64,000 nt of DNA from Candidatus Limnocylindria bacterium. GTDB lineage: Bacteria > Patescibacteriota > Saccharimonadia > Saccharimonadales > JAGQNK01. Positions 6,144-53,963 of this stretch are shown piece by piece; positions within the stretch are counted from its first letter, which is position 1, and every line of letters starts with the position of its first letter. Under the pieces are notes generated by a model, which was given only the letters and a program-made list of their open reading frames with translations, did not search any database and had not been told where the DNA came from. Location: assembly GCA_035489815.1 (NCBI GenBank), contig DATHJH010000042.1, positions 1,581 to 65,580 of the forward strand. The letters are read 5' to 3'. The translations under genes were made by a program, and so were the position numbers.

Positions 6144-7427
6144 ATGCCTTTAGTAGAGCGTTTGAGAGCTAATGATTTTTTGCGGCACAATGCCATCTAT
6201 TTTTCGGGCTCTTTACTGATTGGAGCCCTGAATTATCTGTACTATCCGGTGCTGGGCCGGTTAATGCAGCCTACGGCTTTTGGCGAGGTACAGACCCTTG
6301 TTTCCCTGTTCCTGCAAATTGGAATATTTCTGTCGGTGCTGGCACTGGTGTCAATCAACATTATTGCCAACATGAAGGATGAGGTTCAGCGCAACCGGAT
6401 TAACCTGGAGCTGGAAAAGCTGGCGCTTTTAATCAGCGGCGTGCTGCTGGCAGCTTCTGTTATTTTAGGCCCGTGGCTGCAGAGCTACTTCCAGTTTGGT
6501 TCGCCGCTGCCGTTCAGCCTGCTGGCGCTGGCCGTTGTAGTAACGGTACCATTTACTTTTCGTACCGCCTATCTGCGGGGTAAGAAGCAGTTTAGCCGCA
6601 ATTCTTTGGCCTTTATCGTAGGGGCGGGCAGTAAGCTTATTTTGTCAGTGGCATTGGTAGCAATTGGGCTGAGCACGGCTGGCGCGCTTTTTGGGATAGT
6701 ACTTGCTCAACTGCTTGCCTTTACTTATGCGGCGCGCTATGCCCGGCGCTATGGTTTCACCGAATCCCTGCGCGGCCGGCTGTGGCGCATGCCGGATATG
6801 CGGCTGATTCGGCCAGAGCTTAAATACGCACTGTTAGTGTTAGCCGGGTCGTTGGCCGTAACAGTGCTGTATAGCGTGGATATTGTGGTAGTTAAGCATT
6901 ATTTTGATGTTCAGACTGCCGGGCTGTATGCCGGCGTTGCGACCGTAGCCCGCATTTTGTTTTTTTTGACAGCGTCTATTGCCCAGGTGCTGATGCCGTC
7001 CATTCGCTTGCAGCAATCGGCGGCAGAGAATCGACGAATACTGATCAAGTCACTTGTACTTCTGCTGGCCATCGGCGGCAGCGTTCTGGCCGTTTTTTGT
7101 GCGGTGCCAAAAATGGTAGTTGGTATTTTAATGGGTGAGTCGTACCAAACCTACGCCCACTTACTGCCCCGGCTGAGCGTGGCGATCTTTATTATATCGG
7201 TGCTGAATCTCATCGTCACCTACTATATGGCCCTTCGGTATTACCCTGCAGGAATCGTTATGGTCGCGGGTACGGCCATCACTTATATCTGGATGCACTA
7301 TTCGCATCACTCACTCCAAGCTGTTGTTGATAGCCTGCTGTATGGCAGCCTAACTATTCTGGTCCTGCTCAGCCTGTGGCTGGCCTGGACCCGCCGTAAT
7401 GTTTTAAGAGTGGGAGTCCTCCAATGA
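6144..7427 (+). CDS. MOP/Wzx-type polysaccharide flippase-like membrane protein
   Basis: 427-aa polytopic protein with roughly 12 hydrophobic helices. It is the first gene of a glycosyltransferase cluster, and its stop overlaps the next start. Confidence 0.6.
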   Translation: MPLVERLRANDFLRHNAIYFSGSLLIGALNYLYYPVLGRLMQPTAFGEVQTLVSLFLQIGIFLSVLALVSINIIANMKDEVQRNRINLELEKLALLISGVLLAASVILGPWLQSYFQFGSPLPFSLLALAVVVTVPFTFRTAYLRGKKQFSRNSLAFIVGAGSKLILSVALVAIGLSTAGALFGIVLAQLLAFTYAARYARRYGFTESLRGRLWRMPDMRLIRPELKYALLVLAGSLAVTVLYSVDIVVVKHYFDVQTAGLYAGVATVARILFFLTASIAQVLMPSIRLQQSAAENRRILIKSLVLLLAIGGSVLAVFCAVPKMVVGILMGESYQTYAHLLPRLSVAIFIISVLNLIVTYYMALRYYPAGIVMVAGTAITYIWMHYSHHSLQAVVDSLLYGSLTILVLLSLWLAWTRRNVLRVGVLQ

Positions 7428-50545: not shown

Positions 50546-51247
50546 CTACTGTGCAGTTGCCGTCAATGTCAGGTTGAGGGTATAAGAATCTGCAGCCTGT
50601 TCGGCCGGAATTGTCTGTGAAGCAGTGACGCCCGTGAGGTATCCGCGCCATATGTCATTTGAGGTACCGCCAGCATTAACCAAAGTGATACTGTCCAATG
50701 TGCCTTGGTTAAACCCGGCGCTAGAACCAACACTAACGCCAGTCGTATTACAAGACGCACAGTCCGTCGTAATAGCACCGACCGAAGGGTTGACGGTGAG
50801 CTGGCCAGGTGTGGCATCGGCGTCACCGGCAACATCAGTACAGCCAGCTGTCGTACCAGTCGGGTCGTTAAAGTCAATGTTCTGCGTTGCACCACCGTTT
50901 GCCCACCGTGCAGTGGCGCCTCCGGTGGCGGCCAAGGCCAGCGTCCAGCCGTTGTCCGCACCATCCGTGTTTGTAACATACACGCGTTCCGTGCCAGTTC
51001 CGAGGGTTCCGGTAGAAGCACTACCGCCTGCCTGACATTCAAAGGAAAAGCTCTTAGCAGACATTGCCACTGCCGGACTGGCAACCGGCACACGACTGGC
51101 GTCCATAATATCCGTAGCCAAGGTGTTACCGCCGCTAATAACCTGGCTAAAGGTAGAGTTAGATGCCGCGTATACCGCACTGCTACCAGCAAACACCATA
51201 ACCACCGCCAATGCGATCGCCTGTTTTAATAAAGCAGTTTTTTTCAT
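50546..51247 (-). CDS. WxL-like secreted surface protein (233 aa)
   Basis: GAGGGGG precedes ATG 51247, and a signal peptide is present. NGWTLALAATGG (a WxL motif) and the C-terminal YTLNLTLTATAQ resemble the two-motif WxL domain of Firmicutes. It is paralogous to the C-terminus of the 852-aa protein. Confidence 0.6.
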   Translation of the reverse strand: MKKTALLKQAIALAVVMVFAGSSAVYAASNSTFSQVISGGNTLATDIMDASRVPVASPAVAMSAKSFSFECQAGGSASTGTLGTGTERVYVTNTDGADNGWTLALAATGGATARWANGGATQNIDFNDPTGTTAGCTDVAGDADATPGQLTVNPSVGAITTDCASCNTTGVSVGSSAGFNQGTLDSITLVNAGGTSNDIWRGYLTGVTASQTIPAEQAADSYTLNLTLTATAQ

Positions 51248-51466
51248 GTTCCCCCTCAAATCCCCTTCATACCACTAATTACTCTAGATAGTAGCAGTCG
51301 CGCTTATGTTTGTAAATTAACTTACAGATTTTTCTGTTTTTTTGTGCATTTCCCGCCAGTTTACAGATACACAACTAGCAAGCTAGAGCAGCGGAGTTCT
51401 TTCCCTCAGTTAGCAAGCCAAGCTTAGCATAAGCAAAAAAGAAAGAGCAGATCTAAAATTACATAA

Positions 51467-51484
51467 TCCCGGGTAGCTCAATGG
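51467..51484 (+). repeat. duplicate of the tRNA-Asn 5' end
   Basis: tcccgggtagctcaatgg matches tccggagtagctcaatgg at 51907-51924 in 16 of 18 positions. Confidence 0.6.
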
Positions 51485-51554
51485 GTTCTCTGCACCTAAA
51501 AGGACATACTCAGCCCGCTTGCGGTAGAGTAAAGAATACTCTACCGCAACGATT

Positions 51555-51836
51555 ATGCCCAAAGAAAAGCGTACATATGCAGACAGAAGAGAGTACTTTA
51601 TTATGGCGGTTTCAAAACGCCGCCGCAGGATTAAAGAAAAAGCGATCGAACTCCTAGGCAGCAGGTGTCAAGTGTGCAGATATGACCGCTATCAGGGAGC
51701 CTTGATTTTCATCACGTTGACCCAAGCACAAAAGAGCTTCGGCATTAGCGGCAATGGGCACTCCCGGTCATGGGAGCGAGTAAAAGAAGAACTAGCCAAG
51801 TGTGTACTGGTTTGCGCCAACTGTCACGGGAGATAG
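51555..51836 (+). pseudogene. decayed small HNH endonuclease gene
   Basis: The ORF stays open but reads ALIFITLTQAQKS where an alternative frame of 51704-51736 reads DFHHVDPSTKE, the expected HNH block. After CANCH the expected REI.AGL tail is again in another frame (stop at 51881-83). Confidence 0.65.
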
Positions 51837-51906
51837 GGGCAGGTTTGGTGGAGATTGACCGACCATTTACTCTAAAAGACTGATACGATACAATATACGG
51901 TGTTGT

Positions 51907-52246
51907 TCCGGAGTAGCTCAATGGTAGAGCGATTGGCTGTCAGTTGGCAGCGCACCTGAGTAATCAGGTGATGAAAACAGGGTGAATTGCAGGAAACCTA
52001 CATCCTCGCAGAGGACACGGCAATCTGCAGCCAAGCTAGAAAGAGCAAAAGTTCATTAATGAACTGAGGTTTTCTAGAAGGTTCAGAGACTAGGGAGTGA
52101 GACTCAACGATAATCTCCCCGCGAGCGCCCTGCATCCTACGTAGCTTTATGCGAAGGAGGATGATGAAATAGTCCACGCTCCTGCGAAAGCAGAAGGTCT
52201 AAGTGTAACCAATAGGTTGCCGGTTCGAGTCCGGCCTCCGGAGCCA
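51907..52246 (+). tRNA. tRNA-Asn(GUU) interrupted by a group I intron (exon 1 51907-51940, exon 2 52206-52246, CCA encoded)
   Basis: The joined exons give a canonical cloverleaf: acceptor UCCGGAG/CUCCGGA, D arm GCUC-AAUGGUA-GAGC, anticodon arm AUUGG-CUGUUAA-CCAAU, T arm GCCGG-UUCGAGU-CCGGC, discriminator G73 and CCA. Confidence 0.8.
51941..52205 (+). ncRNA. group I intron (265 nt, no ORF), probably of the tRNA-intron (IC3-like) type
   Basis: P1 forms between exon GCUGU and intron GCAGC with a U.G pair at the splice site. P10 forms between intron GUUG and exon-2 UAAC. Other marks are a P2 hairpin with a GUAA loop (51953-70), AGAGACUA at 52085-92, a GAAA-capped hairpin at 52182-93 and a terminal G at 52205. 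Confidence 0.75.
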
Positions 52247-52353
52247 AAGCAAGCAGTCAAATAGTGAGACCGAGTTCTGTGACCGGTTTCTTCGTTTGAC
52301 TCCTTGGTGCCAGGAAGTTATTCATCAATGCAAAAACAGCCAGTTTTGGTTGG

Positions 52354-52377
52354 AACCGTCCGGAAGGGCGGTTTTTT
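52354..52377 (+). terminator. rho-independent terminator downstream of the tRNA
   Basis: aaccgtcc ggaa gggcggtt forms an 8-bp stem and is followed by TTTTTT. Confidence 0.7.
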
Positions 52378-52502
52378 GTTATTTACTTCAGTTATTTGGT
52401 TCCGAAGGCGACCCGTTCCTGTTGCGGGAACCAAGCAGGCGATAAGGAGACCGAGTTCCTAGATCGGTTTACTCAAATCCACATAATTCCAAGAAAATAA
52501 TC

Positions 52503-53144
52503 CTATTCTAGGTATAGCTTAGAGAATTTTTTGCCATCAATAACTTGCAGCACCGATCCATCGCCAATAGGGCTGCCGTCTGGCATGGTAGAAAATGTAT
52601 CGATACACCACACTCCATGTTTAACTTCATAACAGGTATCGGAAGGGGTATGCCCGAATACTTGAGGTATATTTTTGTATGTAATACTGCCGCCAGGTCG
52701 TGCCCAAAGAGGGCTTGTGTCATTCCATAGGCCAGTCACATCTTCTGCGCCAGACCATTCGTTTGCTATGCCAGCGTGAGAATAGGTAACGCCATCAATT
52801 TCGATAATAACAGGCAGGCCAGCCAGCCACTCCTTCAGTTTTTTATTTTCGGGCGCATTTATTAAAGTGTGTGTTATTGGGTTATAGCCGGTTTGAAATG
52901 ATGGTGTATCGTAAACATAGATATAATCATGATTGCCGAGTACTAAGCCAACTTTATTCTTATGCTTAATCTGCAGATCTCTTAGTGACTTCCAGGTGTT
53001 TAGAGTATTTTGCGGGCTAGCACTAAAGTCATCTGCAAAATCACCACAGAAAACAACCTTATCATAATCGTTAATGACTTTGGAGACTTTCTCAATAATC
53101 CAGATCTTCGTGTGGATGTCGCCAATTGCCAGTATTTTTCCCAT
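52503..53144 (-). CDS. calcineurin-like metallophosphoesterase (PrpE/ApaH-like)
   Basis: The motifs GDIHTK, GDFADD, GNHD and GH(T)P appear in the canonical order. Confidence 0.8.
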   Translation of the reverse strand: MGKILAIGDIHTKIWIIEKVSKVINDYDKVVFCGDFADDFSASPQNTLNTWKSLRDLQIKHKNKVGLVLGNHDYIYVYDTPSFQTGYNPITHTLINAPENKKLKEWLAGLPVIIEIDGVTYSHAGIANEWSGAEDVTGLWNDTSPLWARPGGSITYKNIPQVFGHTPSDTCYEVKHGVWCIDTFSTMPDGSPIGDGSVLQVIDGKKFSKLYLE

Positions 53145-53172
53145 GCCTACAGTATATCCCGTGGATCACTAG

Positions 53173-53526
53173 TTACGCCTGCTTGTGCAGTCTACGTATG
53201 CGCTCACGTACAGATTCTTGATATTGTGCAGGGTTTTGCATCTGGTGATAGGCACGAACAGCAATCACCTCAAAACGATCGTCATCTACAAGATACACAA
53301 TTGCTACTTTATGATTTTGCATCTGAACTTTGCGCACATCCGGATCGCCTTTGAATACGGCATTGGCTCGTGGCAAGTTTCCCAAGTTAGCTACGGTTTC
53401 CATAGCTTCATCAAAAAACCTCACCGCCGATTCAGCATCCACCAGCTCTTCATAAAATGCCATTAGCTCTGCAATATCGTTCTCGGCATCTTCTGTAAGA
53501 TTGACGCTATACTTTTGCACCAGCAA
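53173..53526 (-). CDS. ParE/RelE-family type II toxin
   Basis: 117 aa. YSVNLTEDAENDIAELMAFY...NLPRANAVF...VAIVYLVDDDRFEVIAVRAYHQ fits the ParE pattern. It overlaps the upstream small ORF by 20 nt. Confidence 0.7.
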   Translation of the reverse strand: MLVQKYSVNLTEDAENDIAELMAFYEELVDAESAVRFFDEAMETVANLGNLPRANAVFKGDPDVRKVQMQNHKVAIVYLVDDDRFEVIAVRAYHQMQNPAQYQESVRERIRRLHKQA

Positions 53527-53716
53527 GTTCCTGATATTTCTTTAAAATATCTTTCTTGGCCTGACTGAGCGGTATACGGTTTTTAGGATTTTTAGCAAGT
53601 TTAATGCGTCGTTCCAACTCAAGCCGAAACTCTTGGCTATTTTCGTCTACATTAATAACTTTGCTATTACTCATAGCTTTTATTTTATCACATTCCATGC
53701 ATAAAATATACGCCAA
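53507..53716 (-). CDS. putative antitoxin of the ParE-like toxin
   Basis: Small ORF directly upstream of and overlapping the toxin gene. The likely start is ATG 53674 (MSNSKVINVDENSQEF...), giving 55 aa. Confidence 0.5.
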   Translation of the reverse strand: MAYILCMECDKIKAMSNSKVINVDENSQEFRLELERRIKLAKNPKNRIPLSQAKKDILKKYQELAGAKV

Positions 53717-53732
53717 GATTTGACAATTAAAA

Positions 53733-53806
53733 GGGGTAAGCTAAAGTAAAACGAGCCTAAAATCAGGCGGTAATATTCGCTGGTTCGAATCCCGCCCCCG
53801 GAGCCA
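53733..53806 (+). repeat. degenerate tRNA-like relic ending in ...GGTTCGAATCC...CCGGAGCCA (copy 2 of the tRNA 3' end)
   Basis: 74 nt with a T-arm (one mismatch), a 3' acceptor strand and CCA, but only 4 bp of acceptor stem and no canonical anticodon arm. 53779-53832 is about 80% identical to 52219-52272. Confidence 0.6.
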
Positions 53807-53963
53807 GACCAAGCAGTGAAAAAGGTAGACCGTGCCTATGACTGGTTTCCCGATCCCGGGTTCTGTGAGTGTTCTAGCTTTACGTGACTCTCGTTTTTCA
53901 TTGGCTCAGCAGCCATAAACGGCTCGCTACCTCACTGGGGTTGCCGTGCTATCATTGGTAACT

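Follow-up and report, generated by a model that had tools for sequence, protein, structure and literature searches.

Two pieces of a tRNA gene, 265 nt apart, lie in a 64,000-nt stretch of contig DATHJH010000042.1 (the whole of which is called the window here), which was deposited under the name Candidatus Limnocylindria bacterium. The question that they raise is which tRNA they encode, and what separates them. The conclusion, which we hold with high confidence, is that the gene is a tRNA-Asn(GUU) into which a self-splicing group I intron, of the kind known as the 'Asn 35/36' class, is inserted between positions 35 and 36 of the anticodon. This is in essence what had been proposed in a preliminary description made from the sequence alone, and the coordinates given there for exon 1 (51907-51940), the intron (51941-52205) and exon 2 (52206-52246) all hold. 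Positions are numbered from the first nucleotide of the window, and features are on the forward strand unless stated otherwise.

The split tRNA-Asn gene and its intron

Much of the evidence comes from an alignment of 34 homologous precursors, the window included, on which covariation was counted. Exon 1 (34 nt, TCCGGAGTAGCTCAATGGTAGAGCGATTGGCTGT) contains the 5' strand of the acceptor stem, the D arm, the 5' strand of the anticodon stem, and the loop nucleotides C32, U33, G34 and U35. Exon 2 (41 nt, TAACCAATAGGTTGCCGGTTCGAGTCCGGCCTCCGGAGCCA) contributes U36, A37 and A38, the 3' strand of the anticodon stem, the variable loop, the T arm, the 3' strand of the acceptor stem, G73, and an encoded CCA (52244-52246). 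When the two are joined, ARAGORN reads them as the canonical 75-nt cloverleaf of tRNA-Asn(GUU), with the anticodon loop CU-GUU-AA, as had been claimed. Aligned with exon 1 of the 33 homologues, both the initial U1 and the CUGU end of exon 1 are invariant. The U1-A72 pair and G73, to which the preliminary description had drawn attention, are present in the window and are invariant in all 34 precursors. Both are typical of bacterial tRNA-Asn, and G73 is an identity element in E. coli. The spliced product closely matches uninterrupted tRNA-Asn genes from related organisms, being identical to that of locus L150 at 70 of 75 positions, and to that of L153 at 69 of 75. The anticodon stem pairs across the intron, and all five of its pairs show compensatory changes. 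A comparison with E. coli was set aside as uninformative, because the spliced tRNA has the same identity (53/75) to tRNA-Asn and to tRNA-Thr of that species.

The 265 nt between the exons match the Rfam model for group I introns (RF00028, Intron_gpI) with a score of 81.2 bits, against a gathering score of 50, and an expect value (E) of 4.4e-19. The match runs from 51931 to 52196, covers model positions 1-253 of 253, and is the sole Rfam match in the 64-kb window. Together with the covariation, this bears out the proposal of a group I intron. Its insertion between positions 35 and 36 is likewise upheld, the junctions aligning with those of published tRNA-Asn 35/36 members. There is no open reading frame (ORF) of 60 aa or more within the intron, as had been noted.

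The helices were assigned from the Rfam alignment, from RNAalifold run on ten sequences and by inspection, and were then mapped to window coordinates. P1 is formed by CUGU (51937-51940) with GCAG (51947-51950) in the Rfam alignment; its four pairs, including the U.G, are identical in 34/34 precursors, and C51941-G51946 would be able to lengthen it. The conserved P1 U.G of the Rfam model falls on U51940.G51947, which is the wobble that had been pointed out in the preliminary description, and places the 5' splice site after U51940. The P2 hairpin (51953-51970) has 7 bp and a GUAA loop, with compensatory changes in all seven pairs. P3 (51978-51984 with 52126-52132) is paired in 98.7% of alignment cells and has compensatory changes in four of seven pairs, and P4 (51988-51993 with 52024-52029) is 99% paired with three covarying pairs. 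These are followed by P5 (51997-98 with 52019-20) and a P5a hairpin (52003-52015), the latter seen in the minimum free energy (MFE) fold. P6 (52030-32 with 52080-82) carries long extension hairpins, P6a and P6b, the whole region spanning 52030-52082.

The 5' strand of P7 is GAGACU (52086-52091), in which A52087 is bulged, and its 3' strand is AGUCC (52171-52175). Its five pairs are invariant in 34/34, so that the support for P7 is one of conservation and not of covariation, because the helix never varies. An extra hairpin of 27 nt, resembling P7.1, lies between P7 and the 3' strand of P3 (52093-52119). It is predicted both by RNAalifold and in the MFE fold, and has four pairs with compensatory changes, but only 66% of its cells are paired in the MAFFT alignment. 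The P8 hairpin (52133-52163, pairing 52133-38 with 52158-63) is 90.6% paired and has four covarying pairs. J8/7 is AUGAAAU (52164-52170), directly 5' of the P7 3' strand, and the string GAUGA.AUAGUCC, comprising J8/7 and that strand, is nearly invariant in the family. Here the preliminary description was in error: it took AGAGACUA (52085-52092) for J8/7, and this segment is in fact J6/7, the 5' strand of P7 and the A that follows. The P9 hairpin (52179-52196) is closed by a GAAA tetraloop, and all seven of its pairs covary. The intron ends at omega-G (52205), which is G in 34/34 of the aligned sequences. The hairpin with the GUAA loop, the hairpin with the GAAA cap and the terminal G are thus all where they had been located.

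The window carries every base that is invariant in the family, and P3, P4, P6 and P8 of the conserved core, in which P3 and P7 make a pseudoknot, all covary. Over the 34 precursors, standard pairs are found in 95.1% of cells, compared with 35-44% when the 3' partners are slid by 1-3 columns, and 46 of the 73 pairs have changes on both sides. Of 500 shuffles, none reaches the observed value on four of five measures; four do so on the fifth. The MFE z-score of the precursor against shuffled sequences is -4.45.

It is worth adding that P10, put forward in the preliminary description as a hallmark, does form in the window, as 4 bp between GUUG (51943-46) and UAAC (52206-09). It is not a conserved feature, since a contiguous P10 pair is lacking in 60 of 74 members of the family, and for that reason it was discarded as an argument for the splice register. 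The exons are presumably aligned by the anticodon stem instead, as is reportedly the case in the Anabaena pre-tRNA.

A promoter-like site, TTTACT-N17-TACAAT (51866-51894), was found by consensus scan 12 nt upstream of the tRNA, and both of its hexamers are kept upstream of tRNA-Asn in related loci. At 52352-52385, about 105 nt downstream of the tRNA, there is a terminator-like hairpin followed by a T run, which is a consensus match only. On this basis the gene would be transcribed from its own promoter-like site, and the precursor would fold with the tRNA arms intact and the anticodon stem holding both exons together. The end of exon 1, CUGU, would pair with the intron guide GCAG to give P1, in which U51940.G51947 would mark the 5' splice site. 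A free guanosine would then occupy the P7 pair G52088-C52174 and attack after U51940; the terminal G52205 would take the same site, and the 3'-OH of exon 1 would attack after G52205. Joining of CUGU to UAA would restore the loop CU-GUU-AA. RNase P would trim the short leader, and the CCA is already encoded.

Several points weigh against this account of the locus, or at least temper it. We infer the splicing of the window copy itself from its homology to other members of the class. The guanosine-binding pair, G52088-C52174, is proposed by analogy, the assignment of P7 being based on the order of the helices and on P7 of Tetrahymena, with its G264-C311 pair and its bulge at A263. The subgroup, which would be IA and not IC3, is taken from the published classification of the homologues. 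P9 has one C.A mismatch in the window copy. Finally, the 64-kb window contains no tRNA besides the split tRNA-Asn, but this view is limited to the window.

The identity of the tRNA depends on the splice register. A second register is possible because the dinucleotide TG is repeated at both junctions. In this register the intron, still of 265 nt, would be shifted upstream by two bases, to 51939-52203, and would fall between positions 33 and 34, making the gene a tRNA-Thr(UGU). An intron-aware tRNA search had been suggested in the preliminary description, and it is exactly this that ARAGORN calls when run with its intron option; it gives Asn(GUU) from the joined exons. The threonine register likewise has a U before the 5' splice site and a G at the intron's 3' terminus. 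It is nevertheless very improbable. It would put a U51938-A51949 pair at the splice site in place of a U.G wobble, whereas all 34 precursors have the wobble at U51940, to which the Rfam model also assigns its conserved U.G. Several homologues, whose introns end in AAG, ATG, TTG or CTG, would lose the terminal G in it. The body of the tRNA also argues against threonine, given U1-A72, G73 and the 70/75 identity to an uninterrupted tRNA-Asn. Moreover, the same two-base mis-call, by both ARAGORN and tFind, is documented for this class, and the 35/36 junction has been sequenced in a homologue (Nakagawa et al., PMC13011429).

The suggestion that a group I resemblance has arisen by chance between two unrelated tRNA-like fragments could appeal to the fact that no tRNA is found in the 64-kb window by ARAGORN when its intron option is off. 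It is refuted by the Rfam expect value (4e-19) and by dozens of homologues having the same exon-intron architecture, with covariation. It might also be supposed that the intron-bearing gene is a decaying, non-functional leftover of a past invasion, and that the cell uses another tRNA-Asn. The locus does have a history of rearrangement, because the neighbouring HNH gene is a pseudogene and fragments of tRNA-Asn are present (both are described below). However, the intron and exons keep all of the family-invariant positions, and the helices are intact save for the single mismatch in P9; the adjoining HNH gene, by contrast, has three frameshifts. The copy that was destroyed at the locus is the resident tRNA-Asn, and related genomes normally carry a single tRNA-Asn. 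We therefore regard decay of the split gene as improbable, if a little less so than the threonine register, and retain the interpretation of a functional tRNA-Asn(GUU) interrupted at 35/36.

It is plausible that this gene is the sole tRNA-Asn of a Saccharimonadia genome of roughly 1 Mb. The idea is a reasonable one because the Saccharimonadia genomes in Table S2 of Nakagawa et al. (PMC13011429) have one tRNA-Asn, or none detected when it is intron-bearing. If it is the sole copy, then splicing would be essential. Standard tRNA finders miss or mis-name the split gene, with the consequence that completeness estimates and the apparent codon capacity of a small genome are distorted. The value of the intron itself is thus practical, for annotation and genome completeness, and not conceptual.

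Relationship to known introns

The preliminary description implied that a group I intron in tRNA-Asn would be novel. This is not so: the class was catalogued in 2020 and characterised in 2026. Williams (2020, bioRxiv 10.1101/2020.01.27.920355) raised the number of types of interrupted bacterial tRNA from the classical four to 21, and according to Nakagawa et al. (mSystems 2026, PMC13011429) these include 'Asn.4Ug', at position 35/36. The latter authors reported precise, GTP-dependent self-splicing in vitro for the intron of GCA_016700035.1, which is from Saccharimonadia, and sequenced its 35/36 junction. As a negative control in this homologue, a change of omega-G to C blocked exon ligation. 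The arrangement is therefore published and experimentally validated.

The sequences in Table S3 of Nakagawa et al. align with the window along the whole precursor. The closest relative in the alignment is the intron of GCA_016700035.1 itself, with 76% identity over 301 columns, and the Saccharimonadia members as a group are 67-76% identical over about 300 aligned columns. Homologues were sought by scanning one genome per species with a pattern taken from the P7 and J8/7 region. This gave at least 73 tRNA-Asn 35/36 intron loci (73 among the 120 matches listed), with hosts among the matches listed that include Patescibacteria, Acidobacteriota, Cyanobacteria, Nitrospirota, Proteobacteria and other phyla. 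Given that the class is both known and widespread, the window adds one member to it. Its hosts are enriched in Patescibacteria, though not confined to them. ARAGORN calls threonine for 27 of the 73 loci found among the matches listed.

The window intron agrees with the Asn.4Ug class in its host gene, insertion point, U-1 and omega-G. It has in common with the class the core strings GGUGAAUUGC.GGAA, GCAGCCAAG, AAGGUUCAGAGACUA and GAUGA.AUAGUCC, the extra hairpin after P7, and the mis-call by ARAGORN as Thr(UGU). It differs in that P6 is extended further (by about 40 nt, as P6a/P6b) and P8 is longer, in having the 4-bp P10, and in that its HNH gene is decayed and lies outside the intron, rather than being inside or absent.

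The preliminary description had likened the intron to those of Azoarcus and Anabaena. There is some resemblance to these IC3 introns (Azoarcus tRNA-Ile(CAU), Anabaena/Nostoc tRNA-Leu(UAA)): they also are small, lack an ORF and interrupt a bacterial anticodon loop, P1 uses the last anticodon-loop bases of exon 1, the P7 strand AGAGACU is similar and, to judge by the title of Zaug et al. (1993; cited in PMC3984707), the exons are aligned by the anticodon stem. However, the likeness is a loose one. The tRNAs are different, as are the insertion points (34/35 and 36/37), and the IC3 core is compact, without an insertion at the place between P7 and P3' where the window has its 27-nt hairpin. A compact core of the IC3 type is thus not found in the window intron, and its one extra hairpin at this place is an insertion of a kind typical of IA. 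The published homologues are also classed as IA: this is the assignment of 25 of 28 introns at 35/36, no Patescibacteria tRNA intron is classed as IC (PMC13011429), and the Table S5 entry for a Bipolaricaulota homologue is labelled IA1.

The P7 and J8/7 pattern also retrieved, among the matches listed, 14 introns that ARAGORN puts in tRNA-Gln(CUG), mostly in Gammaproteobacteria, together with single introns that it calls as Tyr, Asp, Arg, Ser, Met, Phe and Pro. Such non-Asn introns include those at L012, L044, L050, L056, L057, L060, L067, L077 and L078.

An HNH pseudogene and a probable remnant of a resident tRNA-Asn

The part of the locus that may repay further work is not the intron but what lies upstream of it. 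At 51555-51836, 70 nt upstream of exon 1, there is a free-standing HNH homing-endonuclease pseudogene. Comparison with six intact relatives shows three 1-nt changes, namely deletions at 51703/51704 and 51827/51828 and an insertion near 51734, by which the frame of DFHHVDPSTK is lost and the protein is truncated at its C-terminus. The Pfam HNH model scores below its cutoff for the window ORF (15 bits against 21.4). The sequence of the region is identical in three independent assemblies, and the ORF is a genuine pseudogene for that reason. No strain variation was found at the locus, the other assemblies carrying identical sequence.

Once reconstructed, the HNH protein can be aligned over 88-93 aa with 24 intron-borne copies, at 50-65% identity, and it shows 69-88% identity to the products of free-standing HNH genes, the highest value being for P0020, the closest intact relative. 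Among the matches listed, the HNH gene lies within the intron itself, in the P1 loop, at 25 of the 73 tRNA-Asn intron loci, and outside it at only one. At L124 a free-standing HNH gene lies upstream of an intron-bearing tRNA-Asn, and at seven distinct loci one precedes an uninterrupted tRNA-Asn by 10-55 nt. The nine HNH genes that are free-standing and upstream form one clade in a neighbour-joining tree, nested among the intron-borne genes, and the window is sister to L124. Nakagawa et al. (PMC13011429) found four tRNA-Asn 35/36 introns with an HNH gene; no description of an HNH gene upstream of tRNA-Asn was found in that paper or in the searchable literature.

More distant HNH relatives (41-53% identity, about 180 aa, with an N-terminal extension resembling a helix-turn-helix) occur on the metagenome contigs L139-L142, where they adjoin tRNA-Arg(UCU) in dense tRNA clusters with a phage-like look. 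Their placement beside tRNA-Arg(UCU) suggests that this HNH family repeatedly associates with tRNA genes.

Further upstream, at 51468-51485, is an 18-nt sequence, TCCCGGGTAGCTCAATGG, that we read as the remnant of the 5' end of a former resident tRNA-Asn. The nearest relatives of the locus, found through the conserved gene at 50546-51259, are L155 and L156 (94% identity) and L157 (80%), and all three have an uninterrupted tRNA-Asn at the locus and no HNH gene. The uninterrupted tRNA-Asn at the syntenic site starts with exactly these 18 nt in L155, as it does in L149, and the homology of the flank with L155 ends at 51467, directly before it. Given that an 18-nt remnant is left, and that the flanking homology stops just before it, the sequence suggests that a cassette of HNH gene and intron-bearing tRNA was copied into the resident tRNA-Asn and so displaced it, truncating it after nucleotide 18, and that the HNH gene decayed later. 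Upstream of the remnant, TTTACA...TAGAGC (51361-51393) matches the promoter-like TTTACAGA-N-TAGAAT that precedes tRNA-Asn in L155 and L157, and looks like the displaced tRNA's promoter, now orphaned.

These arrangements can be set out as three states, namely a free HNH gene with an intron-less tRNA (the seven loci), a free HNH gene with an ORF-less intron (the window and L124), and an HNH gene within the intron (the 25 of 73 loci). Collaborative, or trans, homing is the situation in which a free-standing endonuclease and an ORF-less intron have the same target, and is known from phage (Hausner et al. 2014, PMC3984707). We propose tentatively, seeing rather more to doubt in it than to favour it, that the window locus records a mobile 'HNH + tRNA-Asn' cassette of Saccharimonadia copied into a resident uninterrupted tRNA-Asn, and that the three states make up a cellular series of collaborative homing. 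The likeness to the phage cases is that introns of the same family harbour close relatives of the window HNH gene. The differences are that the setting would be cellular, in a tRNA gene of a Saccharimonadia chromosome, and that the window HNH gene is already a pseudogene.

If the proposal is correct, the three states would illustrate, in cells, how mobile group I introns come to be assembled by collaborative homing, and they would run counter to the view that a tRNA intron is immobile when it has no endonuclease gene within it. The HNH pseudogene and the 18-nt remnant suggest that such introns may move as passengers of a neighbouring endonuclease gene. Passenger mobility of this kind was not considered in the published survey, because endonuclease genes were sought only inside introns.

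Host and downstream island

Besides a SulP transporter, the window encodes the alpha and beta subunits of an F-type ATPase, an AddA-like helicase and a ClpB-like ATPase. It is chromosomal, on account of the ATPase subunits, the ClpB-like ATPase and the helicase. A phage origin was considered and rejected, the region having no blastn match among 50,697 phage records.

The deposited taxonomy of the metagenome-assembled genome (MAG) conflicts with the gene content. The NCBI proteins HTE22763-HTE22827 (locus tags VK674_), encoded on a contig of 91,338 bp, carry the label 'Candidatus Limnocylindria bacterium', which is in Chloroflexota. The named relatives of AtpD, at 86-92% identity, are five Candidatus Saccharimonadales/Candidatus Saccharibacteria and one third-party annotation (TPA) MAG named 'Verrucomicrobiae'; this last, at 92% identity, is probably a labelling error of the same kind. 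A cluster-mate of AtpA at 90% identity or more is from Saccharibacteria, the closest named HNH relative is from Saccharimonadales, and the nearest relatives of the intron are from Saccharimonadia. Because AtpD, AtpA, the HNH gene and the intron all point in this direction, the contig is probably from Saccharimonadia (Patescibacteria) and mis-binned under the Limnocylindria label.

Downstream of the split gene, at 53782-53806, there is a copy of the 3' end of tRNA-Asn (22/25 matches), followed by about 60 nt that resemble the downstream flank of the tRNA (to 53870). A small island (52247-53781) has probably integrated at the tRNA, with this copy as its far end. The genes of the island are all on the reverse strand, and encode a metallophosphoesterase (52503-53144), a ParE toxin (53173-53526) and a putative antitoxin (53507-53716). 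In L157 the same module, accompanied by extra genes (SEC-C, CdiA_C), has a tRNA-Asn on one side and a repeat of this kind on the other.

A hairpin-forming motif, GAGACCGAG...GAYCGGTTT, is present in three copies (52268-52295, 52449-52475 and 53827-53850), which sit downstream of the tRNA and of the tRNA 3' repeat. It may serve in termination, in processing or as an element of an attachment site. Extra copies of the tRNA-Asn 3' end are also seen downstream of uninterrupted tRNA-Asn genes, in L126 (3590-3610 and about 3770) and, on the reverse strand, in L155 (about 6270-6290), which indicates that integration at tRNA-Asn has recurred in this lineage.

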